Of a DNA stretch of 64,000 nt, positions 31,627 through 61,308 are shown one piece after another (the stretch's first letter is position 1; each line of letters starts with the position of its first letter). This DNA is from a virus (Duplodnaviria > Caudoviricetes). The position numbers were made by a program, and so were the translations under genes. The notes below the pieces were generated by a model. That model did no database searches and was not told the origin of the DNA. It saw nothing but the letters and a program-made list of their open reading frames with translations. The stretch covers positions 32,001 to 96,000 of the IMG/VR virus record IMGVR_UViG_3300028048_000079; one strand, given 5' to 3'.

Positions 31627-32141
31627 ATAAAATAAAAAACCTAATGAGTAAAATCGACAATACATATAAACAGTCGATTAATGAAGGTGCATGGGGTGTC
31701 GGTCCAAGACAGAGTGACGATTATCTAGATTTGCAAAGCTTTGTTATAGACGATTGCAGAAAAGTCTTCAAAGATTATATAACAGGTAAAAAAGGACAAC
31801 GCGGTAATGAAGGCGCCGATTTTTCGTGCATTGGACTAATTGACTTTATCTTTGAATTTTTCATAAAAATGGATATTGTATTTGTGGATGAAGATAAGTA
31901 CCTTGTCGATGAATATGCTAAATGTATCGAAAATTGTAAGAAAAATGAATGTTGGTTAAGTAAATGGAATCATGATGCTGATATACAAGGCTCTCTTGAC
32001 AATTTAAGTAAAAAATTAGAAATATATAAAAAGTTAGTTGATAATCCAAAACGTGAAGAAGAAAACAAGTTGATTAAAGAACTTGAAAATCTAAAAGACG
32101 ATAAAGGACTACTTGACACGATACATGACCATATGGATTAA
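31614..32141 (+). CDS. Hypothetical protein
   Basis: Leader ending SINE followed by GAWGVG. Confidence 0.55.
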   Translation: MDTLDKIKNLMSKIDNTYKQSINEGAWGVGPRQSDDYLDLQSFVIDDCRKVFKDYITGKKGQRGNEGADFSCIGLIDFIFEFFIKMDIVFVDEDKYLVDEYAKCIENCKKNECWLSKWNHDADIQGSLDNLSKKLEIYKKLVDNPKREEENKLIKELENLKDDKGLLDTIHDHMD

Positions 32142-42014: not shown

Positions 42015-42230
42015 AATAAATAATGTTTTAAAGAGTTATTACTATTTGTTTTAATTTCACGATGCAAAGGTAATAAAAAAAATTGATATATGCAAGAAAA
42101 AATGAATTTATTTTTAGTCGTTTTAATTTATTTAACAATTGAACATTTTTTAACGAATTTTTAACAGTCAATTAACATAGAAATTCAAGATTATTTTGTA
42201 CCTTTGCATTGTCATTCAGAAGATGGATGA

Positions 42231-42267
42231 AGGGTAAGGATGACACCTTAGAGTATAATCTCCGACA
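42231..42267 (+). ncRNA. Repeated small-RNA element, copy 1
   Basis: TAAGG-ATGACA-CCTTA-GAGTATAATCTCCGACA after the promoter at 42199. Confidence 0.65.
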
Positions 42268-42377
42268 CATTCATTGATAATATGTTAATTTATGTTTCAA
42301 AATGTAAGTAAAATAAAATCCGTCCTATCCTCTCGGACTGAACGGACTAACAACAATATAAGTCAAAAACTAAAACT

Positions 42378-42908
42378 TCATGCTGCTTCTGCCTTTTTAA
42401 TTCCTTGTTTGTACGGATAGCCACCCGTATAATCTATAACGGCTGTCATGACTTCTTTGTAATACTTCTCCATTTTGTTGGCAAGGTCTTTCATGTCCTT
42501 ATAGCTCTGTTTGCGGAACTTCTTTCCGCCATTGTCGACCAATACATTCTGCATCGACTTCATGGCGAGATACTTGTACTTTGGTGTGGTCTTGTCATAT
42601 GGTGAAAGCCATACAGAGCCACTACAGAACACAGATACCTTCTTGTTATATAAATCTATTTTAAAGTCAATGTATATTGAGTTTTCAGAAATGCCGTTGG
42701 GGTAGTCCTCCTTCTTCAGTGCATCCAATCTCACAAAGATAATATAGGGGCAGAAACCGCCCACTTTGCCCACAGAGACGTTTTCAGCAGTGCTGATGGG
42801 TATCAGATAGTCACGTAGCATTTCTCGTTGCTGTTGCCATTCTGTCACGTTCTTAGGGTCACGCATTGCGTTTTCCTTTGCCATGATGTTGTTAATATCG
42901 TATGCCAT
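42378..42908 (-). CDS. Early hypothetical protein (C-terminus AEAA)
   Basis: Start refined to MAYDIN; own promoter near 42962. Confidence 0.7.
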   Translation of the reverse strand: MAYDINNIMAKENAMRDPKNVTEWQQQREMLRDYLIPISTAENVSVGKVGGFCPYIIFVRLDALKKEDYPNGISENSIYIDFKIDLYNKKVSVFCSGSVWLSPYDKTTPKYKYLAMKSMQNVLVDNGGKKFRKQSYKDMKDLANKMEKYYKEVMTAVIDYTGGYPYKQGIKKAEAA

Positions 42909-43139
42909 AATTTTAATTGAATTTAAATTGTTAATAACTGATGTTCTTTTTAATAACGCTGCAAAGGTACAAAGAAATTCTGATATATGCAAATATTCTG
43001 TGCTAAAGAACGTTAAGCGGCCAATGTTTTTCCAGTTTCTTTACATTTCAGATTATCCATTACCTCTTTTGCGTGGTCATTCATTGACTTGTCACCGAAA
43101 GCAAATTTGGCTTTGCCATTTACAAAATATATCATACCT

Positions 43140-43502
43140 TTAAATCATTGTTATAAGTTCATTAATAAAATACCTCATATCGTCAGCATAATCTTTTAAA
43201 TCGTCCCATGATGTTCTGTATACGTTAAAATCTTCAGGGAAAAACTCAGACATATGCTCATAAGTGGGTTTATCACCATAAATTCGTTGAATTAACTTTT
43301 CTTGAATGGTTGTCGGCTCTCCGTCTAAAATTAAATGATATCCTTTTGGTTCTGTGCCGTAAGCCTTGAAGAACTCTACAGCGTCATGGCTGTTTGATGG
43401 GTCATTAACCAACGCTTTCCATTCCTTTTTGAATTTTTTGGACTTTCCCCAATAATATTCTTTATTGTTACCTTCATTGAGATTTATTGCAATTATTTTC
43501 AT
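43140..43502 (-). CDS. Early hypothetical protein
   Basis: 120 aa ORF. Confidence 0.65.
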   Translation of the reverse strand: MKIIAINLNEGNNKEYYWGKSKKFKKEWKALVNDPSNSHDAVEFFKAYGTEPKGYHLILDGEPTTIQEKLIQRIYGDKPTYEHMSEFFPEDFNVYRTSWDDLKDYADDMRYFINELITMI

Positions 43503-43537
43503 GTTGTTTTATTTTTAGATGTTAATAATTTTTGTTT

Positions 43538-43930
43538 TTATCCGTAGATTTCCTCGCCAAAGACGATGGTTTGCAGTAGGCAGTCAGCATCTAACATATC
43601 GCCTTCTTCTGTCATAATGTTGGCATATTGTCTTGGATAGTGGAACATAAATTTCTTGAAACCCTTTTCGATATCCTTAATGGAAACCTTATATTCCTTT
43701 TCTTCTTCTCTGTCCTCAATCAGCAGATAGCCACCATTGATTAAGACATAAGCCCAAATGTCCTCTCTGCAATCATACATAGTTTTGGCTGTTTCGTACA
43801 ATTCCTTATCGGTGTCTTGATGTGTGCCGAATGATGCCCAATAGTTGCCGTAACTTGCATCTGAAAGCCATGTTGAAAGCCAATCGTGGTTTGTAATAAT
43901 TGCTTTAACTGAATTTATTTTCTTTGCCAT
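43538..43930 (-). CDS. Early hypothetical protein
   Basis: C-terminal DADCLLQTIVFGEEIYG motif. Confidence 0.7.
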   Translation of the reverse strand: MAKKINSVKAIITNHDWLSTWLSDASYGNYWASFGTHQDTDKELYETAKTMYDCREDIWAYVLINGGYLLIEDREEEKEYKVSIKDIEKGFKKFMFHYPRQYANIMTEEGDMLDADCLLQTIVFGEEIYG

Positions 43931-43950
43931 AGTTGTATTGAATTAAATTA

Positions 43951-44031
43951 TATCTCGGAATTATTCCTTGATTTCTGTGTGCAAAGTTAATCATAATTTT
44001 TGAGAAAAACGAAGGAAATACATTTTTTAAC
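43951..44031 (-). repeat. Duplicated promoter + leader cassette (second copy at about 46325-46404)
   Basis: TATCTCGGAATTATTCCTTGATTTCTGTGTGCAAAG and TTTTGAGAAAAACGAAGGAA.TACATTTTTTAAC occur in both copies. Confidence 0.85.
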
Positions 44032-44069
44032 CAAAGATTAACATTTGTTTAGATTTATATAATGGGGTG

Positions 44070-44106
44070 TGTTGGAGACTATACTTTAGAGTTTCACCCC
44101 TACCTC
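44070..44106 (-). ncRNA. Repeated small-RNA element, copy 2
   Basis: TAGGG-GTGAAA-CTCTA-AAGTATAGTCTCCAACA on the minus strand, after the promoter near 44123. Confidence 0.65.
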
Positions 44107-44234
44107 TTTTATTTTTCTACTGCAAAGATAGTAAAAAAAGTTGAGATATGGAAATTATTTTTGTTAATTGTTATTAACTGATTGTTAATAAAACAAAACA
44201 AGGGAAGAGTGGTTTACCCTTCCCTTTTGGCTGA

Positions 44235-44250
44235 TGTTTCACGTGGAACA
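44235..44250. promoter_or_regulatory. parS site
   Basis: TGTTTCACGTGGAACA; the reverse complement TGTTCCACGTGAAACA is a perfect match to the canonical consensus. Confidence 0.8.
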
Positions 44251-44251
44251 T

Positions 44252-44794
44252 TTAGGCTGCATCTGCCATCGGCTCGTCCTCCTTCTCCTTGACGGGAATA
44301 TTAAGGTTCTTACAGAGGGCTTCATAGTTGCCACGTGCTCCACACTGCTTGCCCAATTTCTCGGACTTGTTGAGGTCGTTGATGAACGTCACGAAGTCGT
44401 TGGAAACTCTCTCGTAGTAACGCATCACTAAGCGGATGGTCACGTCTGACATCTTCTTTCCCTCAAGGCCGTTATACTTGTTGTACTCCATGCCCATCAT
44501 GTGAACTTGCTCGACCTTGCAAGCCTTGAACTGCTTGTAGCCCTTCTCGAACTCCGACATCTTGAAAGCACCCTTAGAGACACCTACTTGAAGGATGAAA
44601 TAGAATGGGATGGACTTGTGGCTATCTGCAAAGGCCACGATTTCCTCACAGATACGCTTGTGCAGCAGAGCCTTCTGTCGTTCGTCATAATGCTTTGTAC
44701 CTTCCTTCTTGTACTGCGGAAGATTGTACTTTCCGTTAATCTTGTTAGCGGCTGTGTTGCGGATTGCGGTTTCAACTGAATTTTTCATAATCAA
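44252..44794 (-). CDS. Early hypothetical protein (C-terminus ADAA)
   Basis: 180 aa, GC-richer codon usage, own promoter near 44853. Confidence 0.7.
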   Translation of the reverse strand: MIMKNSVETAIRNTAANKINGKYNLPQYKKEGTKHYDERQKALLHKRICEEIVAFADSHKSIPFYFILQVGVSKGAFKMSEFEKGYKQFKACKVEQVHMMGMEYNKYNGLEGKKMSDVTIRLVMRYYERVSNDFVTFINDLNKSEKLGKQCGARGNYEALCKNLNIPVKEKEDEPMADAA

Positions 44795-44938
44795 ATCTCC
44801 TATTTTTAAATTGTTAAACTTAATGTGAATTACTTGTCTTATTTTGACACTGCAAAGGTAATAAAAATATTTGAGACTACCAAATTTTTAAATACTTTTT
44901 AACTGGAAATACCGTTATTTAACATTCGTTCACTAAAA

Positions 44939-45100
44939 TCAATCGTTATACATCAAAACTTGTTCGATTGCATCACATACATGGTCGTAGCCACTTCCGT
45001 ACTGCTGACCTTCTTCATCAAGGACAACAAAACCTTCAGTCCAATCATGTTGGATTGTGTAACGTCCAATTTTCAGATGATTTTTATTTATTGCTACCAT
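44939..45100 (-). CDS. Small early protein (53 aa)
   Basis: Below the track cut-off: MVAINKNHLKIGRYTIQHDWTEGFVVLDEEG...; promoter near 45148. Confidence 0.6.
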   Translation of the reverse strand: MVAINKNHLKIGRYTIQHDWTEGFVVLDEEGQQYGSGYDHVCDAIEQVLMYND

Positions 45101-45246
45101 ACATTATTAATATTAAAGGGTTATTACTAATTGATTTTTGATAGCGCAAAGGTAATACTTTTTTCTGAAATATCCAAATATTAGATGAATTTTATTTGTT
45201 AAAGAACGTTAAAAATTAAGGGATATTAACAATTTTAATTGGCTTA

Positions 45247-45283
45247 CATTGGAGATTATACTTTAGGATTTTACTCCTACCTT
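45247..45283 (-). ncRNA. Repeated small-RNA element, copy 3
   Basis: TAGGA-GTAAAA-TCCTA-AAGTATAATCTCCAATG after the promoter near 45299. Confidence 0.65.
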
Positions 45284-45579
45284 TTAATTTTGATAGTGCA
45301 AAGTTAAGGAAAAAAACTGAATTATGCAACTTTTTTGTGCTAAATAATATTAAATGAATTGTTAAAAATTGTTTTGTGGGAAAGCACTTCGGTCTCGCTT
45401 CTACGTTAGGCTCTGAACACTTGTACTTTGTGCCTTTTGGCTTAACTCCACTACCCTCCAAAGGTAACTCCCACAAAACTAAAATAGTTCGCAACTTCTT
45501 TCGTCCATAGCGACATGGATTCTTTTCTTAGGCTCTGTTGCTTTTCCTAATAGGTGGGTAGCCACCCCACCACGTATCT

Positions 45580-45930
45580 CTATGCAACCTCCTTGAGGCT
45601 GATGTATCTTTCACTCCATTTCCACTTTATTTGAAATGCTGCATCATGGCAATTTTCACGGTAGGCTTGAAGGTCTGCCTTTGCCTCCTCTTTCGTGGTG
45701 CAAAAACATTCCACGTCCCATCCTTCGCCATAGTTGGACATCACACATGGACAAAGCGTAAACTCTGTCAATTCACCATCCCAATCTTTTGTGAGACGTT
45801 TAGCTGTTTCTTCTGTAATGTCACGCAAACGGCAAGCCTTCTTGCAAGCCTTATAGGTTCTGCCAAAGTTTACTAAGCCGACATACAATCCGCTTTTTAA
45901 CTTGATTTGATATTCTGTCCTATTTGCCAT
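45580..45930 (-). CDS. Early hypothetical protein (C-terminus EVA)
   Basis: NYGEGWDVEC...L.AYREN motif; own promoter. Confidence 0.7.
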   Translation of the reverse strand: MANRTEYQIKLKSGLYVGLVNFGRTYKACKKACRLRDITEETAKRLTKDWDGELTEFTLCPCVMSNYGEGWDVECFCTTKEEAKADLQAYRENCHDAAFQIKWKWSERYISLKEVA

Positions 45931-46042
45931 AACTTATTACTATTATAAATTGATTTTTAATTTGACACTGCAAAGGTAATACTTTTTTCTGAAATATGCA
46001 AATTATTTTAGTTAAAAAGCGTTTCAGAATTGTTAAAAGATG

Positions 46043-46303
46043 TTAACCAACTCTCATTACATATACACCTTCGTAGTCACCACCAAAATCGATATCAGCA
46101 ACTTTTTCACCTATTTTGAGGTCTGTGAATGGTCTGCCATCGGTTGCAACTTCTAAACCTAACTTCATAAAATCCTCTGCTGAACGTACAACATGAACTA
46201 ACGGCTTGTCACCATCTACAGCCCATGATTCGCATTCTGATGTATTAATAACAAGGTATGCACCAAAATTTTTGTTGTACTCTTTTATTTCTAAACGTTC
46301 CAT
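46043..46303 (-). CDS. Early hypothetical protein
   Basis: 86 aa ORF with its own promoter. Confidence 0.65.
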   Translation of the reverse strand: MERLEIKEYNKNFGAYLVINTSECESWAVDGDKPLVHVVRSAEDFMKLGLEVATDGRPFTDLKIGEKVADIDFGGDYEGVYVMRVG

Positions 46304-46522
46304 ATTAAAAAACTAATTTATATTATCTCGGAATTATTCCTTGATTTCTGTGTGCAAAGGTACAAAGAAATTTTGAGAAAAACGAAGGAATTACATTTTT
46401 TAACATGACTTTAACGTTTAATATAGGAAATGTTAAATCTTAGTTAAAAAAGTGTTAAAGTGCCGGAAATATTTGGTAATTTAAAAAATTATTCGTACCT
46501 TTGTATCGTCAATGAAAGACAA

Positions 46523-46559
46523 GGGGCAAAGGTGAAACTTTGAAGTATAATCTCCGACA
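46523..46559 (+). ncRNA. Repeated small-RNA element, copy 4
   Basis: CAAAG-GTGAAA-CTTTG-AAGTATAATCTCCGACA after the promoter at 46496. Confidence 0.65.
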
Positions 46560-46665
46560 TGGGTAATTATTTTTTCTTAAAAAACGTTAAAAGCAACCCC
46601 ACCTACTTTCACAAGCGGATGGGGTAAAACTGAAATGCCTAAAATTTCCAAAGGTGAGGAGGCTT

Positions 46666-46962
46666 TTATGCAGCCTCCTTCTTCACATAGCTGGTAAGGT
46701 CGTAAGTACCACGCGGTATGTGTGTGTCCGCACCAACTTCTGTAAACTTTTTTCCACGTCTTTCAAGTTCCCTACGTGTATAGGCCTGCTGCTTGCTTGT
46801 GGTGCAAGAATACTTGCAGACGTTAAACAGAATGCCATCAGCCGTTTTTTGGGCGATGCAAGTCGCATAAGAATACAACTTCGTGCCGTTAGTCCGCATT
46901 GAACCATTCTGCTTTTCCTGACCATTGATAAAAGCGTTAATCAAATCTACATTACTAATCAT
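46666..46962 (-). CDS. Early hypothetical protein (C-terminus KEAA)
   Basis: LYSYATCIA...YSCTTSKQQ motif. Confidence 0.7.
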   Translation of the reverse strand: MISNVDLINAFINGQEKQNGSMRTNGTKLYSYATCIAQKTADGILFNVCKYSCTTSKQQAYTRRELERRGKKFTEVGADTHIPRGTYDLTSYVKKEAA

Positions 46963-47217
46963 ATCTGTATCTCCTATAAATTAAAGATGTTAAACTTGTG
47001 GGGTGTCATTCCCTTAACTTTTGACGATGCAAAGGTAATACATTTTTTTGAATTATGCAAATTTTTGGGTAATTATTTTCGTCCAATTTTGTTTAATTAA
47101 CACTTAAGTGTATCATTTCTTAACAAATCATAAAAAAACGCTAAAAATTTGGTGGTTTCAAATATTATACTTACCTTTGCATTCGATTTCAAATAACAAT
47201 TCAAAATAATAAGGTAT

Positions 47218-47391
47218 ATGAATAATAAATCAAAATTTCTCTTAGTCCTAATAACGCTAATTTATTGTGCCATATTGTATTATGGTGTATTCTGTTTATC
47301 CAATCCCTACAAAAGCAGTCTGTTGATTTCTGTAGGGTTTATTGCTGTTATTTTAGCCTATGGCTACGTATTTGAGAAGTATAACAAATAA
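47218..47391 (+). CDS. Small two-TM membrane protein (57 aa)
   Basis: Below the track cut-off; follows the promoter at 47172. Confidence 0.55.
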   Translation: MNNKSKFLLVLITLIYCAILYYGVFCLSNPYKSSLLISVGFIAVILAYGYVFEKYNK

Positions 47392-47405
47392 AAAATTTTT
47401 ACGTT

Positions 47406-48095
47406 ATGAGTTGTCCTAATTTCCACAAAATCAATGCACATAATTATTATGTCGTAGGCGATACAACAACCGCCTATGATGATGAACTTGAGGAGGAGGT
47501 CGAGGTAACGAAGGATTCCTTTGACTACGATTGCGATATAGACTTTGCACAAGAAAGCGCAAAGGAAAAAGGTTTTGACCCCGTGGACTACAATGACCGA
47601 AATTCCTATCAGAATAGTATGTGTGCATCTTGTCTTTCATCTAAATCTAAATGGTATGCTTTCGGCAAAAAGGGTGCTAACATGGATTTCAACAACTTTG
47701 AATTCAGTCAAGAAATTTATGTTCATAGCGGCCATTATTCCGGAATGAACTACGATTGGGATATTTGTATATCTGATAATTTCGGTAATCACTTCCGGAT
47801 TTCTGAATACGATTCTATAGAGTCTCTTGTGGATGATATTGCCGACACATGGCAAGAAAATGCTACAGATTCATGGTATGACACATGGAATGCCGGATTG
47901 GCTAAAATCCAAAGGAAAAACCTTGTGAAGTGGCTGAATGGTATGATAGAAAAACTATCTGATGAAGTCGACGATGTGTGCCGATATATCTGTGAGGAGG
48001 TTTACGTATGTGGCGGTATCTTCTCAAATGGTGAAGCTGTCTATTACAAAGAAGATAGTCTTAAAGGTAAGGTGAACAACGTGGAGGCTGCATAA
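47406..48095 (+). CDS. Early acidic hypothetical protein (C-terminus VEAA)
   Basis: 229 aa; SGHYSG and FSNGEAVY motifs. Confidence 0.7.
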   Translation: MSCPNFHKINAHNYYVVGDTTTAYDDELEEEVEVTKDSFDYDCDIDFAQESAKEKGFDPVDYNDRNSYQNSMCASCLSSKSKWYAFGKKGANMDFNNFEFSQEIYVHSGHYSGMNYDWDICISDNFGNHFRISEYDSIESLVDDIADTWQENATDSWYDTWNAGLAKIQRKNLVKWLNGMIEKLSDEVDDVCRYICEEVYVCGGIFSNGEAVYYKEDSLKGKVNNVEAA

Positions 48096-48116
48096 GTCTC
48101 CACACCGCTACCCTAT

Positions 48117-48132
48117 GTACTCGAATGGGTAC
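48117..48132 (+). repeat. GTACTC-AAAT-GAGTAC hairpin family (also at 48484, 49258, 57632)
   Basis: Four intergenic copies, all on the + strand. Confidence 0.8.
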
Positions 48133-48166
48133 AGGTTAACACAAATATCAATTAAAATAAAAAATT

Positions 48167-48472
48167 ATGTTACGTTATAGCGGAGAAAAATTTCAGATGG
48201 TTGATAGGAAAGGAATAGTCCATGAAGTCCTACAAGTAACCAAAGGTAAGGCTAAGAAAGCCTATGAGGAAGGCAAACATATATGGATTCACCCTTGTAA
48301 TATGCGTGTATCAAATGTATGGCAGTCACCAATGCCTTTCAACAAGAAAGCGATTGAAGATAATGCCTTCCTAATGAATAGTACGTTTGATGATATTGTT
48401 AATGATTTCCGGTATTACAACTGCGACAATGAACGTGGAAAATATCCTATCTTCTTCGTGGCGGCAGCGTGA
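48167..48472 (+). CDS. Early hypothetical protein (C-terminus VAAA)
   Basis: FRYYNCDNERGKYPIFF motif. Confidence 0.7.
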   Translation: MLRYSGEKFQMVDRKGIVHEVLQVTKGKAKKAYEEGKHIWIHPCNMRVSNVWQSPMPFNKKAIEDNAFLMNSTFDDIVNDFRYYNCDNERGKYPIFFVAAA

Positions 48473-48604
48473 GCAGACCCCATGTACTCAAATGAGTAAC
48501 AAATAACATCAATTAACAATTCATTAAGGTTCTTTAAGCAAAAAAGTTTGGTAGATTAAAAAATTATTCGTAACTTTGCAGTCGAAATTAAAACAATAAA
48601 GAAT

Positions 48605-48880
48605 ATGAGAGAAGACTATAAGTATGGCCAACGGTACGGCAGACGTTTTTTTGTTGGAATCGACATCGCTCTTGTGGCAATGGTAGTATATGCTTTCAAT
48701 GCCGAGTGCTATTCATCTGAAGAAGTAAATACATTCAGTGAGGACACTTGTAAGTCTCTTGCAAAGCACGATAGTAAAAACGTCCATATCTATGAGTATG
48801 AGACAAAAAATATCGACAACATTTGTAATGCCATTAACAGAGAAGGCAAAATCGTGTTTGTAAGAGCATTTGAAAAGTAA
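48605..48880 (+). CDS. Early hypothetical protein
   Basis: 91 aa ORF after the promoter at 48571. Confidence 0.55.
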   Translation: MREDYKYGQRYGRRFFVGIDIALVAMVVYAFNAECYSSEEVNTFSEDTCKSLAKHDSKNVHIYEYETKNIDNICNAINREGKIVFVRAFEK

Positions 48881-49174
48881 GGCATAAAAGTCTTGATGGC
48901 GCAGTGCGCAATGCTTAATAAGACTTCGGTTGACCATCATCGTCTGTGAGACATACGTTCATCGTTTATAGCAGACACTTTTAAAACTAAGGACAATAGG
49001 CTGAAGGAGTTTTACCGATAGTGGGTTTTCAAGTAGGCCACAAGCACCATAAGAAAGTGCAGACAACCGGAAACGGAATGTTAGATTAGTCCTGACCCAA
49101 ACGGAATTGACCGGTAGGACATGGTGAGAGTTAAGTCCATGTGGCTTGGTGAGTGGAATAGGAACTCATAAATT

Positions 49175-49249
49175 GCTCCCATAGTCGAGTGGATAAGACG
49201 AGAACCTCCTAAGTTCTAAGCACCGGTCCGATTCCGGTTGGGAGTACCA
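49175..49249 (+). tRNA. tRNA-Arg (anticodon CCU)
   Basis: Acceptor stem GCTCCCA/TGGGAGT, anticodon arm AGAAC-CTCCTAA-GTTCT, T arm ACCGG-TCCGATT-CCGGT, encoded CCA. Confidence 0.9.
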
Positions 49250-49322
49250 CACCCTATGTACTCAAATGAGTATGGTATACGAAGTAGAGTTAATATCAAT
49301 TTAAATTAAACAATTAGAAAGT

Positions 49323-49649
49323 ATGACACAGATTGTAACAAAAGTAGGCACGTTTGACGTGATGGACAAGAACGGAAACGTATTAGTGTGTAAGAACGGA
49401 AAGGCATTGGCCACATTCACCGGTATCAATGCTTGGGATAAGGACGCTATCATCATGGCCATTGAAAGTCATGGAGAGGAACTTAATAAGGCCGCAGCAA
49501 AAGTCGGTACCGGAAACATTACATCTGAGAATGTCATTCCAACACTGAACTATATCTGTGACATGTTGAGCGACACCATCGAGGACAACAAGACAAAAGG
49601 CTTCGTAACAAGTAGGCTGAAACAAGTTATTAACAAGTTGGCAGCATAA
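49323..49649 (+). CDS. Early hypothetical protein (C-terminus KLAA)
   Basis: 108 aa ORF. Confidence 0.7.
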   Translation: MTQIVTKVGTFDVMDKNGNVLVCKNGKALATFTGINAWDKDAIIMAIESHGEELNKAAAKVGTGNITSENVIPTLNYICDMLSDTIEDNKTKGFVTSRLKQVINKLAA

Positions 49650-49669
49650 ATAAAATGAATTAGAAAATT

Positions 49670-49795
49670 ATCACGGAATAGCGGGGTTGACCGGAACCCA
49701 AGTAATACCCAGTACCCAACCGCTGCGCAGTTTAAGAAGGGGGTCTAAACAAAAACTGGTGAGGGCTTAACCGGCAACCGCTAATTCCCCGTGAT
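49670..49795 (+). ncRNA. Candidate structured RNA (~125 nt)
   Basis: Ends pair through ATCACGG/CCGTGAT, TAGCGG/CCGCTA and GTTG.CCGG/CCGGCAAC. Confidence 0.45.
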
Positions 49796-49813
49796 TAACA
49801 AATATCAATTAAT

Positions 49814-49939
49814 ATGAATTACGTAGTGAACTTTTTCACCCAAAGAGAGTATGAGCATATTCCTGAAATGCTGAAAGCCGGTAGTAAGGAACTCGCAACA
49901 GACCCTAAATCCTTTGGTGAGCGAAAGCGCAAATGCTAA
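49814..49939 (+). CDS. Possible small protein (41 aa)
   Basis: MNYVVNFFTQREYEHIPEMLKAGSKELATDPKSFGERKRKC with an A/T-rich start context. Confidence 0.35.
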   Translation: MNYVVNFFTQREYEHIPEMLKAGSKELATDPKSFGERKRKC

Positions 49940-50024
49940 ACAAATTTTAACACAAAGGTTTACACTTTTTAACAGAAAATATTTGCATATCTCGAAAAAA
50001 GTTTGTACCTTTGCATTGTCAAAA

Positions 50025-50830
50025 TAAAACAAATGGCTATGACACCCGCAAGAAAGAATTAGCGGAGTTGTAAAACCAACAATGGATGATGGGAGGTTAT
50101 GGGGAATATTCCACCTTAGTACCAATCCGAAATAGTTCAAATAATATGGACACAAGACCTCCGCCCAATTGAAGGGTATGTAAGATTTAAATTGTTTAAT
50201 ATTCATATAAGAGCGTAGAACTATGATAAGAGTAAGAGACAAGCCTTGATAAATAAGGTTAGTATAATATAAAATCATATTTAAGATTAGGCTGATTGCT
50301 GACGCTAATCACCGCAGCCCGTTATATAAGTGAAACGGCCCCGCACAGATACCGCAGCATAGGCCAAAGTGAGAACAAGCCACACCGCCTTTGCGAATTG
50401 AAGTCAGTGGACTATGTGAAATTCGCCCGCATCAATATCCGGTTCTCTATTATATCTCTTTCGGAAAGTGGCTCAACCTTCAACGCAAGATTGCCTTAGT
50501 CCGGCATATAGTGCCGTTTGAGCGAATGGCAGGGACGTGAAGGATAAACTCAGTCGGAATAATTTGCAATAGTTCTGACAATGGCTCACTTAAGAGAGTT
50601 TGCATTAGCGTAGTGATTACGATGATGATTTAGGAGGTGAGTTTTGAACATGAAAATGGAAACTGCTGTATCACAAGGGTAAAGGTTTACGATTGCTTGT
50701 TGGAGGAGGTTGTGAACAGCACTTGCAAGAGTTTTCAAAGTAGTGTTTGGTGAGTTGTCCTTTATAGGTTAGCGACCTATGGTATATGGAGGATGGAGGA
50801 CGCAGAAACTTAGATTGGATAACTCACATT
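50025..50830 (+). ncRNA. Candidate large non-coding RNA upstream of tRNA-Ile
   Basis: About 800 nt after the promoter at 50005 with no credible ORF; 3' two-thirds GC-richer than the spacers; abuts a tRNA. Confidence 0.45.
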
Positions 50831-50832
50831 TT

Positions 50833-50909
50833 GCTCTGGTAACTCAGTTGGTTAGAGTGCTCGGCTTATACCCAAGTGGTCGGGGGTTCAAGTCCCTCCC
50901 AGAGTACCA
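50833..50909 (+). tRNA. tRNA-Ile (anticodon UAU)
   Basis: Acceptor stem GCTCTGG/CCAGAGT, anticodon loop CTTATAC, T loop TTCAAGT, encoded CCA; one C-A mismatch in the anticodon stem. Confidence 0.85.
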
Positions 50910-50984
50910 TAGGAAAAAAAATTATGTTGTTTGTCATAACTTTTGGGTTTAAAGCACTATTTATTTATATAAACAATAGATAGT

Positions 50985-51551
50985 ATGCAGAATCCAAATA
51001 GTTACTTAAAACAAAAAGAGCGTAGTTTATTACGAAAACTTGAATTAATAAAAGAAAAAGGTGGTAAATGTAATCTTTGTGGCTATGATAAAAATATTGC
51101 GGCATTAGAATTTCATCATATAGACCCATCAAAAAAATTATTTCAATTAGACTCAAGACATATATCCAATACTACGACTGAGAAATTAATAGAAGAAGCA
51201 AATAAATGTATTTTGGTTTGTGCCAACTGCCATCGAGAATTACATAACAAGCAATTTGAAAAAACTGAACTACAAAACACACTTGATAATATAACATCAC
51301 GGCATATTAGTTTAAAGGAAAATAAGAAAAAAATTGGAACTTGTAAATATTGTGGTAAAGAGTTTCCATACGTAAAAGGAAAAATATATTGTTCTGCTGA
51401 ATGTCGTGAACTTGATAAACATTACCCTTCTTATGAGGAAATAATCTCGGATTATCAAAAACTTAAAAGTTGGGAAAAAGTAGCACAGAAATATAACATA
51501 TCAAGAAAAGTGATACAAAGAATTAGAAAATTTAAACAATCTCAAGCGTGA
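50985..51551 (+). CDS. HNH endonuclease (free-standing homing-type)
   Basis: GGKCNLCGY...LEFHHIDP...CILVCANCHRELH; second CxxC; HTH-like tail. Confidence 0.85.
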   Translation: MQNPNSYLKQKERSLLRKLELIKEKGGKCNLCGYDKNIAALEFHHIDPSKKLFQLDSRHISNTTTEKLIEEANKCILVCANCHRELHNKQFEKTELQNTLDNITSRHISLKENKKKIGTCKYCGKEFPYVKGKIYCSAECRELDKHYPSYEEIISDYQKLKSWEKVAQKYNISRKVIQRIRKFKQSQA

Positions 51552-51942
51552 GAGTTTTTATTAACAAATGATTTTAGAATTCATGGGGCTATCAACCGGA
51601 CACCTATCACGAATGAAAATTTTTTATATCCTGAAGACAAGTAGCGTGATGAAGGTAGTATCATACACTATCACCGGTTTTATTTATTTTATTAAGTATT
51701 AATAGATTTTTGAGTCTTACTCGTCTGTGAAAGATAGGTAAGACCTCTTTGTATCTTTTAACATGAATTAACAGAATTTTTTTGGCGGTATGAAATATTA
51801 TTTGTATCTTTGTAGCGTAAAACGTCAGAAATGGCTTATAAACGCATTTTAACGTCTTAGACTAATAACTATCCATCTGAATGCAGAAATGCGTCCTACG
51901 AGCCTTAAAAGTGGCAAAAACAATAATTCAAATAAAAAGACT

Positions 51943-52146
51943 ATGAATAACAAAACGTATGTAATCTATTCAGAGGATTTGAAGGGATTTCTTTCAAACG
52001 ATGGCTTAAGCCTTACAGAAAACATGGATGATGCAATGCACTATCCAAGCGTAGGACAAGCAATGATGGCTTCGTATAAGACATCTGAACAATTGAATGG
52101 AATATTCAAGTTCCATGAGATTTCAATCCCTGAATGCCAGAGATAA
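51943..52146 (+). CDS. Small hypothetical protein
   Basis: Start refined to MNNKTYVI. Confidence 0.5.
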   Translation: MNNKTYVIYSEDLKGFLSNDGLSLTENMDDAMHYPSVGQAMMASYKTSEQLNGIFKFHEISIPECQR

Positions 52147-52438
52147 AAATAAATTCAAAATAAAGAAAAAATATCAACCGGTCTAGGACTGGAACCTATA
52201 GTATCTTATCGTATAAGAAAATTATATTTTTAATTAATATAATTTTCATTTTCATTTCTTCCTAAGAAGAAAGAAAATATATAAAAGAAAGAAGAAAGGT
52301 TTCCTTTCATGGTCTGTAGTCCTTTGTTAAAATTATAAAAAATTCACATAGTTTTAACGAAGATTAAGACTCAACAATTTGGATAATTCAGAATTATTTT
52401 GTACCTTTGCACTTGAATTTAGGCAACAACAAAGAATA

Positions 52439-52687
52439 ATGGCGAAAATATTTCACGTAAACAAGTATAAATATAATGACGAAATAAGTATTGAAGAACG
52501 TCATTATGAATGGTATAACACAACTGAACGTGTTATCAATGGTGGGTTATGCTATCCTAAGTATAGGAGAACTTATACTGAAATAGTTGGTGTATTATCA
52601 AAAACTAATACAGTAGTTACACACAAACATTCTACTTATATCGATTTACTTGATGAATTAAAAGAATTAGGATATAAAATCAAATAA
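52439..52687 (+). CDS. Early hypothetical protein
   Basis: Start refined to MAKIFH, after the promoter at 52402. Confidence 0.6.
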   Translation: MAKIFHVNKYKYNDEISIEERHYEWYNTTERVINGGLCYPKYRRTYTEIVGVLSKTNTVVTHKHSTYIDLLDELKELGYKIK

Positions 52688-52715
52688 TTTATAATTACTT
52701 TAAACAATATCAGTT

Positions 52716-53297
52716 ATGGAACAAGTAATCGCTTATAAGGCTTTTAATGGACGTTTATTCGATACAGAGGAAAAATGTATCGCCTATGAAAAGAAGTTGT
52801 CTCAATACCCAAAGGTAAAAGAAACAACCATAAAGGCTGATGATAGTTATATCACCAATAAGGTAGGACATGGTGTATATGTTTCAACTGATATTGTAAA
52901 ACACGTTATTGAAACATGGGAAAAACCATATTCACAGAAAAAGACAAAAGTTTTCTATATCGTTGGAGGTAAATATAAATTCATTGACATACATGATAAA
53001 CATGGTGCAAGCCTTATGCGCGGAAGTACCTATCTGTTTAATAATGAAGATACATCAACAGAATGGTACTTAGGTGCAAAGCATTTCGCTGAACAAATAT
53101 TAAAAGGACATGAATTGACAGATGATTTCGTTTTATCTGAAATCAATCAAATGAATGAAATAAACTGCATACATAGCAAATTTAGCGAACTTACTGCTGA
53201 AGTAATAGAGCCAAATAAGAAATGGAAAATAGATAACCCAAAATGGACTTCCGGAGCAGTAGCACCACATACATTCACAATAGAAAAAATCAATTAA
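52716..53297 (+). CDS. Hypothetical protein
   Basis: YKAFNGRLFDTEEKCIAYE N-terminal motif. Confidence 0.65.
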   Translation: MEQVIAYKAFNGRLFDTEEKCIAYEKKLSQYPKVKETTIKADDSYITNKVGHGVYVSTDIVKHVIETWEKPYSQKKTKVFYIVGGKYKFIDIHDKHGASLMRGSTYLFNNEDTSTEWYLGAKHFAEQILKGHELTDDFVLSEINQMNEINCIHSKFSELTAEVIEPNKKWKIDNPKWTSGAVAPHTFTIEKIN

Positions 53298-53494
53298 AAA
53301 AAAAAATAGAAAACTCAAAATCAGATTGTAGTTTTATCAGGAACTTTCACTTACAATTTGTAATTTTTGCAGGAGACACAAGTTTCAAAGTGTAATTTTT
53401 GCAGGAGGATTTTTTAACAATCTGTTAATGTTTATTAACATAAAATATTTGCATATTTCAAACTTTTTTTGTACCTTTGCATTATCAAAATTGA

Positions 53495-53531
53495 TAGGTA
53501 AGGGTAAAGCCTTAAAGTATAGTCTCCAACA
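53495..53531 (+). ncRNA. Repeated small-RNA element, copy 5
   Basis: TAAGG-GTAAAG-CCTTA-AAGTATAGTCTCCAACA after the promoter at 53472. Confidence 0.65.
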
Positions 53532-53697
53532 CAGCTTGTACGGAATTGTTAATTTTATATAAATTTCACATAGATTTAACAATGATTTAACTCAAAAAAT
53601 TTGGTACTTTCAAAAATTTTCACTATCTTTGCAGTATAAATTTAATTAATATAAAATATGTATAGTTTTAAAATTAATGTAATAGGAGGACAAAAAT

Positions 53698-53877
53698 ATG
53701 ATTTTTACAGCAATTATCACATCAGCAAGTGTCGTAAGACCGGCTAAGTCCTATGACACTATTAAAAAACAAATGGAACGTATCTATAAACTCTATGCTC
53801 AAGGATATGGTACAAGAGAAATGCTTGAAGATTGTGAACAGAAAGTATACGTAATCTTCACTAAAATCCCTTATTAA
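53698..53877 (+). CDS. Small hypothetical protein (59 aa)
   Basis: Below the track cut-off; follows the promoter at 53624. Confidence 0.5.
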   Translation: MIFTAIITSASVVRPAKSYDTIKKQMERIYKLYAQGYGTREMLEDCEQKVYVIFTKIPY

Positions 53878-53992
53878 TGTCTTTTAACAGATAATTCACA
53901 TTCTTTATGACAAATAATTTGGATATTCCAAATATTATATGTAACTTTGCACTTACAAAACAGAAAGTCAAACAATTTAAATTAATATTATT

Positions 53993-54439
53993 ATGGTAGA
54001 GAATTTCAATTCAATCGTAGAGATTATGAAAAGACGTATTGCACATGATTTGCATAACAACACAAATGGTGTGCTTGATATGGTGCTTAATGCCTATAAC
54101 CGCTATCAGGAAGACGAGAGAGACGGAGTAGACTATATCTTCGACCTCAATAATCAGAATGACCTCAAATGTATGGTTGATGGTGGGTTAACCGTGACCG
54201 AAATCGTTTCGGCTTGGAATAAGGTTCAGAATGAAGGAATTACATCATATTTCCATTTCGGATGCAACTATGACGGATTAGAAGCATTAGGAACAACTAC
54301 AGACGTGAAACATGACCTTATCTCATGGCTTCCGATATTTATTCCATACGTCCTTATGTACGTAACACGATGCACAGAGTATCAAGCAATCTATGAACAC
54401 TATATCACAGAGTATCTTGAAAATAACGAAGACTTCTAA
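53993..54439 (+). CDS. Early hypothetical protein
   Basis: 148 aa ORF after the promoter at 53942. Confidence 0.65.
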   Translation: MVENFNSIVEIMKRRIAHDLHNNTNGVLDMVLNAYNRYQEDERDGVDYIFDLNNQNDLKCMVDGGLTVTEIVSAWNKVQNEGITSYFHFGCNYDGLEALGTTTDVKHDLISWLPIFIPYVLMYVTRCTEYQAIYEHYITEYLENNEDF

Positions 54440-54544
54440 TGACTATCGGTAATGTTATTGTAGCATTGGTATTCGCCTTGATAGGTGTTCTGTGGCTTAT
54501 CCTTGAAAAGAAAACCAAAGGGAAAACAATTAAATAATATCTAT

Positions 54545-54895
54545 ATGACAATAAGTAAAAAGAAAATTCAATTAATATCAGATAGTGATATAGGCACATA
54601 TCTACGTGTCTCAAAAACAAGGGCAAGGGAGATATTTGAGGAAGGTAATGGCAGACTATATGTAATGACATCTGACAGAAATCCGGTTAATTCAGCAACA
54701 ACCGCACATGAATATAAAAAAGGCTGTAAACCTTATTGTTATTATTATGATAGTGAAAGAGAATCTATCAACACCTTTGATGAACTATTGGACGATTTTG
54801 CCTATTGGCTCGATACAGACGGATATGGACATATTCCGGACAGATATAGGTCAATGCACGAAATGTTCTCATATTGGGTGAAAATTCAAAACTAA
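54545..54895 (+). CDS. Hypothetical protein, possibly a distant relative of 48167..48472
   Basis: Start refined; VSKTRAREIFEEG vs VTKGKAKKAYEEG, and TFDELLDDF vs TFDDIVNDF. Confidence 0.55.
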   Translation: MTISKKKIQLISDSDIGTYLRVSKTRAREIFEEGNGRLYVMTSDRNPVNSATTAHEYKKGCKPYCYYYDSERESINTFDELLDDFAYWLDTDGYGHIPDRYRSMHEMFSYWVKIQN

Positions 54896-54989
54896 ATTTA
54901 ACATTTACATTAACATTCTTTAACCGAGATTATTTGGTAGTCTCGGTTTTTTTTACTACCTTTGCATTGTCAAAAAGAAATAAATGACA

Positions 54990-55026
54990 GAGGTAGAAGT
55001 GAAATTCTAAAGTATAGTCTCCAACA
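54990..55026 (+). ncRNA. Repeated small-RNA element, copy 6
   Basis: TAGAA-GTGAAA-TTCTA-AAGTATAGTCTCCAACA after the promoter at 54957. Confidence 0.65.
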
Positions 55027-55049
55027 TATTTGAATGAAAATTGTTAATT

Positions 55050-55577
55050 TTAATTAATTCCCAATTTTTTTAACCAGAAATTAGTGTTTTCAGAATAAGT
55101 TAATTTTGTTTGATTTTTCTGTGAATAAATGCTATCTCGTCTAATAGTTTCATATATAACCTTTTTATAATACTTAGGTTTAGTTAAAAAACGTTCTCTG
55201 GTTAATTCGTTATCTATTATGTTTTCAGTTGCCCACACCCACCTAAGATTACAAGCACGATTATCATCTTTTTTTGTATTAATATGGTCAACCTCTGGTT
55301 TATTATCAGTATTTGGGATAAAAGCCAAGGCTACCAAACGATGAACACCAATATGATGATTTTTATTATTCTTATCCTTAATGGTTATTCTGACATAGCC
55401 ATTTTTATCTTTCTTTAAAATGGCAATTTTATCACCTTTTAAAATACGGCCAATATTAGAAACTTTAATTTCCGGATAATTTTCCAATTCTTTCCATATT
55501 TCTCCATCTATAATACTGAAATCTTCGTATTCTTGTTTCCGGTATCCTCTATATTTGTATTTTTTAACAAAAGACAT
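55050..55577 (-). CDS. NUMOD4-HNH homing endonuclease
   Basis: EIWK...VSNIGRI, VHRLVALAFIPN, VDHINTKKDDNRACNLRWV. Confidence 0.9.
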   Translation of the reverse strand: MSFVKKYKYRGYRKQEYEDFSIIDGEIWKELENYPEIKVSNIGRILKGDKIAILKKDKNGYVRITIKDKNNKNHHIGVHRLVALAFIPNTDNKPEVDHINTKKDDNRACNLRWVWATENIIDNELTRERFLTKPKYYKKVIYETIRRDSIYSQKNQTKLTYSENTNFWLKKLGIN

Positions 55578-56131
55578 TTTTCTTTAACTTTTATGCAAAT
55601 ATACTTTTTTTTGAATAATTACAAAAATATATTTGTCGAAATATATTATACATTTGTTAAATAATCCTAAATTTAACATTTATTATTTAATTTTAACATT
55701 ATTTCATATTATTTAAAATTTTGTTAAAAAATGGACAGCACACAGATTTTTCTCGTCAATTTTACCATATCCACATCATTAAATTTAATTCATTTTTTCC
55801 ATCTTTCAGTTAAAAAATTTTATTTACCTTTTTCCAATGAGAACATATTCCGGTAAATACTATAGTAAATGATACTATTTTGATATCATAATGGAATAAA
55901 AAATCTATCAATTTGACTATCAACCCCTTAAAATTCAGCCTTTGTAACTGCTTGATACTGAAAGGGTTACAATAAACTATGGTGTCTGTTTTCCCATAAG
56001 TATTTGATTATCAAGTAGTTACGGGATTTAGTAAAAAAAGTGTTAATTTTCTTTTAAAAAATGCAATAAATTTGGATATATCATTTTTATTTTGTACCTT
56101 TGCGTTGTAATTAGAAAAATGTTATTATATT

Positions 56132-59489: not shown

Positions 59490-59643
59490 GAGATTAGATT
59501 ATGTATATTGCTAAATGAGATTAACAAAAATTAACTATAATTTTTTGGTGAAATCAGAATAATTTCGTATCTTTGCAGTGAATTTAAAAGCGAGGATGGT
59601 GAAAATCGTTAAAAGAGTATCCTGAATTTTAAAAATTTTTATT

Positions 59644-61308
59644 ATGAGCATTATTACACATAAATTAGAAGAATACAACACAATAGAAAGTATTAACGAT
59701 TTGGTTGGTAAAATTAACGAAAAACTTCCTAACAGAAGTGACTGTAAAATTTATCCAAACCAGATGAAGTGCGCAATTAAAGGTATTAAAATGTTTGATA
59801 GTAATTTACCTCGTCCAAATCATTTAGTGGTACAAGGTAAAACACAAGCAGGAAAAACTGGTGTTCTTACTTCTATGATTATGCTTATTGATGAGTTAAA
59901 AATAGAAGGGGCAATGTCAGTTAATACCATATATTATATTACTGGTGACAATGGGTGTAAATTAATTAAACAAACACAAGAAAGAATTAGTCATTGTTTT
60001 ACTGCTGACGGAATCGAATGTGAATTCAAATGCCTCAAAAATTCAGACCTAAAAAATGACATTAGTAATGAACAAGTTCTAACCAATACAATTATCTTCA
60101 TTGATGAAAGTCATTATGGTGTATCAAGTGAAAAAAATATTTTAATAAAATGGTTAGAAAGTAAGGCTATTAATATGCACAATGATAAGGAACTTGTTGA
60201 GAAAAGTGTTTATATTGTATCTAATAGCGCAACCCCATATGGCGAAATAAATTCTGATTGTGGTAAATACAAAAGTTATGTTGCACTTGAAACAGATGAT
60301 TGGAATGGTGAATATGGTTATGTCGGATTTAAAGAATATAACAAAAAAAACTGTTTCCGTACAATTACTTCCCAAATTAATAAGGGTAATGTGGTCGAAA
60401 TGTGTGAACAACTGTCAACTCGCTTAAATGAAATACACACAAATACTGGTAAAATGAAATGTGGTATAATCAGAATGCGTAAAGAAACATTTAAAAAGTG
60501 CCAAGATGTTTTGGAAGAATATTTTCACGTAGAAACATATTTTTCAACAAATGAAAATATTAATTACAGTGATATACAATGGAAAATGGAACACGAATGT
60601 GAAGATTGGGGTAAACCATTAATTTTCGTGGTGGCCGGTGCTTATAGAATGGGCGTTAGTATTCCGTCTACTTGTAAGAAGAATATTGGATTTATCTTTG
60701 ATTATGCAACTGGCAATGCCAAAAATAGTGTTATAACAACAGAGCAAGGATTGCTTGGTCGTGTTACTGGATATTGGAAAACAGATGATTGGTGTGATAT
60801 AACTATATACATAAACGAAAAACATTATAATGGTCTTAAAGCGTGTTATGTAGAACAAGCAATTTCAACACCAATGGCTGATGTTAAACAAAAATTTGTA
60901 CCAAAAGAAGAAGGCACAAAGGTCGGTATTATAAGTGATGATGATTTTATTGAAATTTTTTGTGATGAAAAGTTTGGCGATAAGGAATACAACCATAAGG
61001 TAAAAGAGTTTGTGGAAACAAGTCTTAGAGAAATGGGAAAACCTTTACCAGAAGATATTGTTTGGTTACCTGGTCGAAGAAATGATAAAAGGAACAAGGT
61101 TAGGTTTAGTCAACCAACATTTAGTTTAAAAGAAGATGGTGCTAGGTCGATTTTATCTAAAAAAGAGAACATCAATAAACAATGTTATACAACTTTGTAT
61201 GATATTGATGAAAATACCATTAAGGTTAGATATGGAAAAATCGTAAAAGGTGATTATGTTGAAACCTATGATGAAAATAAGAAAATAATACATACTTTAA
61301 CAACATGA
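59644..61308 (+). CDS. SF2 helicase-like P-loop ATPase
   Basis: QGKTQAGKT, IFIDESH, SAT, QGLLGR. Confidence 0.75.
   Translation: MSIITHKLEEYNTIESINDLVGKINEKLPNRSDCKIYPNQMKCAIKGIKMFDSNLPRPNHLVVQGKTQAGKTGVLTSMIMLIDELKIEGAMSVNTIYYITGDNGCKLIKQTQERISHCFTADGIECEFKCLKNSDLKNDISNEQVLTNTIIFIDESHYGVSSEKNILIKWLESKAINMHNDKELVEKSVYIVSNSATPYGEINSDCGKYKSYVALETDDWNGEYGYVGFKEYNKKNCFRTITSQINKGNVVEMCEQLSTRLNEIHTNTGKMKCGIIRMRKETFKKCQDVLEEYFHVETYFSTNENINYSDIQWKMEHECEDWGKPLIFVVAGAYRMGVSIPSTCKKNIGFIFDYATGNAKNSVITTEQGLLGRVTGYWKTDDWCDITIYINEKHYNGLKACYVEQAISTPMADVKQKFVPKEEGTKVGIISDDDFIEIFCDEKFGDKEYNHKVKEFVETSLREMGKPLPEDIVWLPGRRNDKRNKVRFSQPTFSLKEDGARSILSKKENINKQCYTTLYDIDENTIKVRYGKIVKGDYVETYDENKKIIHTLTT

Follow-up and report, generated by a model that had tools for sequence, protein, structure and literature searches.

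What might six short, hairpin-forming elements, scattered through one region of a phage genome and each placed behind a promoter of its own, do for the phage? This question is raised by positions 42,231 to 55,026 of the 64,000-nucleotide (nt) stretch of DNA analyzed here (the window; positions 32,001 to 96,000 of the IMG/VR virus record IMGVR_UViG_3300028048_000079). Each element starts with R-G-G, forms a 5-bp stem around a 6-nt loop and, after the second arm of the stem, ends in a further R and a tail, which is common to all six copies as AGUAUANUCUCC. Our tentative answer, reasoned from sequence comparison, is that the element would serve as a protein-binding site on an abundant early non-coding RNA or leader, acting in trans.

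Six exact matches to the 12-mer AGTATARTCTCC, and no more, are found in the window (at 42252+, 44085-, 45262-, 46544+, 53516+ and 55011+), where by our estimate about 0.015 would be expected by chance. A first-pass annotation, made from the letters of the window, had put six copies at these places and on these strands, and all six stem pairings given there were recovered, including the single G-U pair in TAGGG/CTCTA. A covariance model, which was built from copies in related phages and used to scan the window as well as the whole 124.9-kb record, scored the six copies at 52–66 bits (E values between 1e-13 and 1e-17), and beyond them no score above 11.4 bits was obtained in the window or in the whole record. 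A degenerate seventh copy, suspected earlier at 59592–59624 (+), had to be given up: the segment shows no stem pairing, lacks the tail, gives no model match and is the 5′ leader of gene 59644–61308, having only short words in common with the element (GTGAAA, AGAGTAT). The window copies are single units 0.9–7 kb apart.

Scanning collections of viral and metagenome sequences, from the human gut and from other samples, for the pattern brought the harvest to 188 distinct copies with 34 different stems. Most of these were gathered with a pattern that fixes much of the tail, and the copies found by the model agree with them. In 56 copies picked regardless of pairing all 280 of 280 stem pairs were standard, with 11 G.U and no A.C. 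A further 129 distinct copies were aligned by means of the model; here 99.5% of the cells were paired, four of the five pairs change on both sides, and 28 G.U cells were counted versus 3 non-standard ones. None of 500 shuffles reached the observed covariation score, and slid registers came nowhere near it. The stem that had been described as changing while keeping its pairing is thus found to covary in homologues as well. Since the wobbles are G.U and almost never A.C, the fold belongs to the sense strand, that is, to the transcript of the element's own promoter (P1) or to the displaced non-template strand. The loop follows the consensus G-U-R-A-N-A, and GG, the first two stem pairs, AGUAU and UCUCC are near-invariant, also in those copies that were found with the tail left unfixed.

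With respect to the promoters, a TAnnTTTG box (the -7 box of Bacteroidota) ends 16–26 nt upstream of the element in all six window copies, close to the distance of about 15–25 nt given in the first-pass annotation, and a P1 promoter was present in 176 of the 188 harvested copies. The leader between box and element is 76% purine and of variable length, mostly 13–29 nt, and the distance to the next promoter varies, too. The distance on the other side, by contrast, is nearly fixed: the pentamer GTTAA follows at +16/17 from the element end in 142 of the 188 copies, and in the remaining ones it is mostly found at 26/27, 36–38 or 46–48, i.e. on a 10-nt ladder, with GTTAA and TTAAC sites carrying on downstream at a period of 10–11 nt. 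Because the leader and the next-promoter distance vary and the spacer does not, the 16-nt spacing is probably constrained. This link between element and GTTAA is new, being absent from the earlier annotation, and it points to a co-transcriptional or DNA-coupled aspect.

The pentamers GTTAA and TTAAC furthermore recur in phased arrays ahead of most early promoters, with peaks 40, 50 and 60 nt upstream of the -7 box (-40, -50 and -60), and genome-wide the same-sense neighbors lie 10–11 bp apart. Given this phasing, its genome-wide extent and its presence at most early promoters, the arrays are a DNA-level feature, reflecting either a bound protein or curvature. Arrays in the window were seen at 42050–42200, 46380–46490, 53410–53450 and 54900–54940, with up to four pentamers in a row between divergent promoters. 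We found no description of such a phased signal for Bacteroidota phages. A micro open reading frame after GTTAA was considered and rejected, there being neither a conserved peptide nor a conserved frame.

Several extensions of the fold were analyzed as well. For the small pseudoknot proposed earlier between the loop RUR and the conserved UAU, pairing is indeed possible in 99.5% of the cells, but no pair changes on both sides in the 129 distinct sequences, and the knot would have no linker nucleotide between its two helices. Pairing of the leader with the 16-nt spacer into a closing helix was rejected, since matched pairs did not outperform mismatched ones (p 0.7 for Watson-Crick pairs, 0.2 with G.U); an energy-based version of the test was marginal (p about 0.03). 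A second hairpin based on GTTAA...TTAAC was rejected likewise, as its inward extension was no better than that of permuted pairs (p 0.08), and GTTAA and TTAAC are discrete DNA motifs. Taking the tail for a sigma-70-like promoter (TATAAT-like), or for a promoter on the reverse strand, leaves the covarying stem unexplained and misfits the spacing to the boxes. Rfam 15 at gathering thresholds returned two tRNAs and nothing else over the window, and in E-value mode only chance-level matches were obtained for four of the copies and the host copy described below. As a text string in the literature the tail matched only a spacer of a clustered regularly interspaced short palindromic repeat (CRISPR) locus by chance, no relevant description was found, and the deposited phage records yielded no canonical copy of the element. 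Judged by these comparisons, it is a predicted, deeply conserved structured RNA motif with very good covariation support and without a match in Rfam 15.

The genes next to the element were analyzed for the 161 copies with enough flank. The first downstream gene was co-directional in 100 cases (~62%) and convergent in 31 (19%, the range for inverted copies being 19–24%), and for 30 copies no gene was called. Of the 100 co-directional copies, 92 have a second -7 box (P2) between element and gene, typically ~93 nt past the element. Evidently, the elements are not ordinary leaders of open reading frames, as had been claimed for the window, where copies 1, 4 and 6 run head-on into convergent genes and copies 2, 3 and 5 are followed by a second -7 box 80–92 nt downstream and then by a gene. 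Across these arrangements the element is independent of its neighboring gene. A P2 within 135 nt is the commonest arrangement (109 of 182 copies), and in only one of these 109 tandem-promoter copies does a terminator-like hairpin precede P2. Where P2 is not nearby, 10 of 73 copies reach a terminator-like hairpin 59–76 nt downstream, and in one group of orthologues a CUCC/GGAG hairpin, followed by a U-run, is closed by the tail itself. Cassettes, by which we mean P1, leader, element and GTTAA, are placed directly behind the terminator of the upstream unit, for example at 54922–54948 and 44200–44226. Complete cassettes also occur in tandem, 149–178 nt apart (L148 2900–3160, L241 9169–9361, L237 2043–2260 and L253 2108–2320), the second P1 then occupying the usual place of P2. 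The downstream genes are mutually unrelated; a gene family common to all cassettes was rejected, since none was found, and PHROGs matches of ten neighboring proteins were confined to families of unknown function and an HNH endonuclease.

Two observations on terminators are added here. The terminator of gene 46666–46962, at 46598–46619(-), has a 12-nt loop, ACTTTCACAAGC on the + strand, which is common to hairpins of related phages; in these hairpins, at homologous places (G003, G002 and G005, e.g. at about 11900 of L125), the stems are entirely different, CCCCACC/GGATGGGG versus TAGTTAAG/CCTAACTA. In the hairpin 42318–42355, just past the stop of gene 42378–42992, the loop (CTATCC-TC-CGGAC-like) is again kept and the stem changes, as seen in six related phages.

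The source record comprises 124,868 bp (CheckV completeness 32%) with 34% G+C and encodes two tRNAs, a ClpX-like ATPase and tail proteins. The element-bearing relatives are contigs of 215–400 kb from gut and rumen phages, one of them a 379,916-bp genome with terminal repeats, and the nearest cultured relatives are the Bacteroides thetaiotaomicron phages DAC16-23 and SJC03 (helicase identity 37%). The source phage is a gut Bacteroidota jumbo phage, and its group is widespread in the human gut and the rumen. The related genomes hold 9–14 copies each, all within ~18 kb of promoter-dense, early-type DNA; with the source phage included the copy number is 6–14 per genome, and hundreds of copies were seen overall. 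In these phages between one and three genes for sigma-70-family factors were found (region 2, with scores of up to 68 bits; G000:C1:11023–11196, G003:C1:360306, 37845, 262344), which would imply a stage-specific redirection of the host polymerase. Because these phages encode up to three such factors, the host-type TAnnTTTG promoters would fit early genes.

Outside these genomes, a single diverged copy was detected in an unannotated 275-nt gap of phage DAC19 (MT074139.1, about 70040–70210). This unit consists of a TAnnTTTG promoter, an A-rich leader, AAGG, the hairpin (5-bp stem TAGAA/TTTTA, loop GTAAAA), a tail AAUAUAAU..., a 9-bp terminator with U-run, a second promoter and a gene. The promoter-leader-hairpin-tail-second promoter architecture is the same as in the jumbo-phage cassettes, from which the DAC19 unit differs in being a single copy, in its tail, which has drifted towards AT (UCUCC to UUUUU), and in its closure by a canonical terminator, whose stem is GTTAA/TTAAC. 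Furthermore, one canonical copy with its own promoter and a strong terminator ~50 nt downstream was found in a Muribaculaceae genome bin (JAFYSL010000006.1, L129 19075–19260). The contig is truly chromosomal, as it also encodes TamB, Omp85 and LptD, and the copy sits at its very end. BLAST found no homologue of the unit in 401 genomes of the family, and a defense context was rejected since the neighboring gene encodes a ModF-like ABC ATPase; the copy may be a phage module that was captured, or it may mark the border of a mobile element that was not assembled. In the distant relatives L176 and L208 hairpin and tail are kept behind a different promoter-like motif and without GTTAA at +16. This motif is repeated around the element (L176 2100–2700, L208 1850–2500; TTTGGCA-N6-ATTGC and TTTGG...TATAATATAGTGTAA) and may be recognized by a phage sigma factor. 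As the Muribaculaceae copy, DAC19, L176 and L208 all keep hairpin and tail, these two form the conserved core, and with this core terminator-bounded in DAC19 and in the Muribaculaceae contig, the earlier description of a discrete, small-RNA-like unit gains support.

From these data we tentatively suggest the following course of events. Each cassette would be transcribed early, as a small unit of its own, by the host RNA polymerase, which would start at a strong host-type P1. If transcription starts ~5 nt after the box, the transcript would begin with a purine-rich leader of roughly 8–20 nt, followed by a fixed module of GG, the 5-bp hairpin, which keeps its shape and is free in its sequence, the G-U-R-A-N-A loop and a 12–16 nt single-stranded tail, AGUAUANUCUCC-RWYA. 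Because many invariant bases surround a freely covarying stem, the module is a putative binding site for one specific protein. The RNA itself, a short free non-coding RNA or a cut-off leader supplied from 6–14 gene copies, would then be the product and could partner or sponge a candidate phage or host protein in trans. The 16-nt distance to the first GTTAA suggests that the module is read or finished co-transcriptionally: assuming that ~15 nt of nascent RNA reside inside the polymerase, the whole element would just be out when the active site meets GTTAA, and a pause or roadblock at this point could, more speculatively, set the 3′ end or load a factor.

Evidence for a free product comes from the inverted copies (19–24%), from the served genes having promoters of their own, from tandem cassettes, from the terminator-bounded copies elsewhere and from the high copy number. 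Several observations weigh against it. As only one of the 109 P2-type copies has a terminator-like hairpin before P2, P1 transcripts would be expected to continue into the gene, unless something else stops or cleaves them. Co-orientation with the next gene is favored ~3:1, the fixed +16 spacing to a DNA-phased motif is more naturally accounted for by a cis-acting, polymerase-coupled signal, no partner protein was identified, and the DAC19 copy is single with a drifted tail.

The coordinates of the six cassettes are compiled in Table 1. Beside cassette 6, gene 55050–55577(-) encodes an HNH endonuclease (PHROG E 2e-26), lies inverted between the cassette and the next promoter at 56087, and looks like a mobile insertion; the single inverted genes faced by copies 4 and 6 may both be insertions between the element and the next promoter. 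The GC skew changes near 56 kb from ~0–0.1 (46–56 kb) to 0.25–0.35 beyond, with genes on the + strand on both sides, and the element cluster ends exactly at this change.

Table 1. Positions of the six cassettes in the window and of the second promoters (P2) behind three of them; distances of GTTAA (in brackets) are counted from the element end.
Feature	Position	Strand	P1 -7 box	Element	GTTAA	Stem	Loop	Remarks
Cassette 1	42199–42288	+	42199–42206 (TACCTTTG)	42232–42267	42284–42288 (+16)	TAAGG/CCTTA	ATGACA	purine-rich leader; tail AGTATAATCTCCGACA; points at 3′ end of minus-strand gene 42378–42992, part of a minus-strand operon
Cassette 2	44038–44130	-	44123–44130	44070–44105	44038–44042 (+27)	TAGGG/CTCTA (one G.U)	GTGAAA	immediately behind terminator 44200–44226
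Cassette 2 P2	43982–43989	-						TAACTTTG; 80 nt past element, upstream of gene starting 43930
Cassette 3	45226–45306	-	45299–45306	45247–45282	45226–45230 (+16)	TAGGA/TCCTA	GTAAAA	
Cassette 3 P2	45147–45154	-						TACCTTTG; 92 nt past element, upstream of gene starting 45100
Cassette 4	46496–46590	+	46496–46503	46524–46559	46586–46590 (+26)	CAAAG/CTTTG	GTGAAA	points at single inverted gene 46666–46962(-), terminator 46598–46619
Cassette 5	53472–53552	+	53472–53479	53496–53531	53548–53552 (+16)	TAAGG/CCTTA	GTAAAG	
Cassette 5 P2	53624–53631	+						TATCTTTG; 92 nt past element, upstream of gene 53698–53877
Cassette 6	54922–55047	+	54957–54964	54991–55026	55043–55047 (+16)	TAGAA/TTCTA	GTGAAA	upstream gene's terminator 54922–54948 overlaps P1 region; adjoins stop of inverted HNH endonuclease gene 55050–55577(-)

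Could the element instead act in cis, on the very polymerase that transcribes it? In such a nut- or put-like signal, or hairpin-dependent pause, at the GTTAA array, the nascent hairpin and tail would bind a factor or the polymerase, and elongation (pausing, antitermination or attenuation) would be altered for transcripts started at P1 and not for those started at P2. We consider this rather unlikely. In its favor, the element lies close behind a promoter, and its leader varies in length whereas the spacing downstream is fixed, with 142 of 188 copies having GTTAA at +16/17. Of the 109 copies that have P2 nearby, 108 show no terminator between element and P2 or gene, co-directional copies outnumber convergent ones (100 versus 31), and cassettes are set directly behind the terminators of upstream units. 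The hairpin lies 12–17 nt behind a putative stop at the tail end, which is hairpin-pause geometry as in the his-pause hairpin. BoxB-type sites offer a second parallel, as lambda boxB has a 5-bp stem and a GNRA-like loop beside a conserved linear segment; the element's 5-bp stem and GNRA-like loop recall it, stem and GURANA loop appearing compatible with a boxB-type hairpin, and nut (boxA plus boxB) and HK022 put sites are likewise promoter-proximal nascent-RNA signals in early phage transcripts. However, the 19–24% of copies that face convergent 3′ ends could yield nothing but antisense RNA by antitermination. A fifth of the copies point away from any gene, and downstream of the site a promoter of its own is present for almost every served gene. 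Only for ~62% of the copies does the site lie in the transcript of genes to be read through, as expected of a nut site, and there are 6–14 copies here rather than 2. The element has no boxA-like sequence, the tail being unlike the Bacteroidales rrn boxA GUUCUUUGAA (taken from one Bacteroidales rrn leader), and no NusG-like gene was found in five phage genomes, whereas control genomes did match. Finally, tandem cassettes and the terminator-bounded copies of DAC19 and Muribaculaceae would be senseless for read-through. Searches for phage RegA, run without a positive control, and for phage HU gave no match.

The trans-acting RNA that we favor has a bolder form, in which an immediate-early RNA battery captures one particular host protein, be it a transcription factor, a ribonuclease or an immune effector that binds RNA, and the 3′ ends are set where the polymerase meets a protein-bound, phased GTTAA array 16 nt downstream. 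We judge this full combination to be improbable; if true, the battery would represent a phage RNA sponge of a new class, whose small RNAs form by a new route.

Equally doubtful is a second special case of the trans-acting RNA, the one put forward in the first-pass annotation, according to which the RNAs are decoys that imitate a CRISPR repeat or a type III antitoxin and in this way titrate a host RNA-binding defense protein. Structured RNAs that are made early from many strongly promoted copies and have about the right size would suit this purpose, and one chromosomal copy does exist in the Muribaculaceae genome. The search for a host counterpart, however, provided no evidence: a full-motif scan of one genome per species over 185,579 species matched only two contigs, each with a single copy and neither in a repeat array, and the covariance model found nothing comparable in 151 Bacteroidales genomes, a weak match in G036 lying in coding sequence and without a hairpin. 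These negatives apply to the genomes searched, which are samples, the true host of the phage not being identified. The Muribaculaceae unit, for its part, has no homologue among the 401 family genomes and a ModF-like rather than a defense gene beside it. ToxI antitoxins are structured RNA units of ~36 nt that form tandem repeats processed by the adjacent ToxN, and phages can encode such units. The element resembles ToxI in being a structured RNA unit of ~36 nt, yet its copies are single, each with its own promoter, and never form tandem 36-nt arrays, the closest pairs (149–178 nt) being whole cassettes; moreover, covariation of the pseudoknot is absent here. The ToxN domain PF13958 had no match in five phage genomes, and the control genomes gave no match either. 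RNA anti-CRISPRs are solitary, promoted, repeat-sized hairpin RNAs in phage genomes, a description that also suits the element. It differs in that no CRISPR repeat in the genomes searched resembles it and in that the stem changes from copy to copy, even within one genome, whereas a mimic should copy one repeat.

A role at the level of DNA appears highly improbable. Here, an R-loop would form as P1 transcription passes through the purine-rich leader (76% purine), and the hairpin would arise in the non-template strand thus displaced. In register with a protein on the GTTAA/TTAAC array, it would be used for priming, nicking or some other transaction of DNA. The 10-nt ladder and the 10–11 bp phasing are properties of DNA, G.T wobbles are tolerated in DNA hairpins, the fold of the element is strand-specific, and the cluster ends at the sharp GC-skew change near 56 kb. 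Against this, 6–14 sites in 18 kb on both strands do not resemble the origins or nick sites that are known, the arrays stand upstream of early promoters in general and are not specific to the element, and L176, L208, DAC19 and the Muribaculaceae copy keep hairpin and tail without GTTAA at +16.

Promoter-early stem-loop (PeSL) cassettes have been described for T4-type phages (PMC2839356, PMC4122927) and are the closest analogue in organization: they, too, combine a host-type early promoter with a stem-loop in a short regulatory cassette, which recurs many times among the small, variable early genes of a large phage. PeSLs are associated with indel breakpoints, and the present cassettes may be so as well. 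PeSL-type composites of terminator and P1 are present in the window at 54922–54964 and 44200–44226/44123–44130. The PeSL stem-loop, however, is a terminator upstream of the promoter, whereas here hairpin and tail are transcribed downstream of it, with invariant loop and tail bases and a second promoter afterwards; PeSLs are without a conserved transcribed hairpin and tail. That the cassettes are mainly portable repeats of this kind, which promote recombination and shuffling of early ORFan genes and carry the hairpin incidentally, is the least credible account, for although whole cassettes of 180–280 nt cross-match between positions at ~70% identity, composite terminator-promoter junctions flank them and, in one pair of relatives, four of nine collinearity breaks fall within 50 nt of a cassette edge (~1.4 expected), it leaves unexplained both the perfect compensatory pairing in 34 stem variants and the invariant loop and tail bases and fixed 16-nt spacer in an otherwise indel-prone cassette.

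The element thus occurs in many copies in widespread jumbo phages that infect Bacteroidota, in which the control of early genes is almost uncharted, and its surroundings would give a first clue to the organization of early promoters there, with phased GTTAA/TTAAC arrays, tandem promoters and terminator-promoter composites. If the element acts in cis, it would be a polymerase-coupled signal of a new kind, in a phylum that differs from E. coli in its machinery of transcription. If, on the other hand, the RNA binds a host protein, it would offer a handle on host take-over or counter-defense in a major gut phylum.

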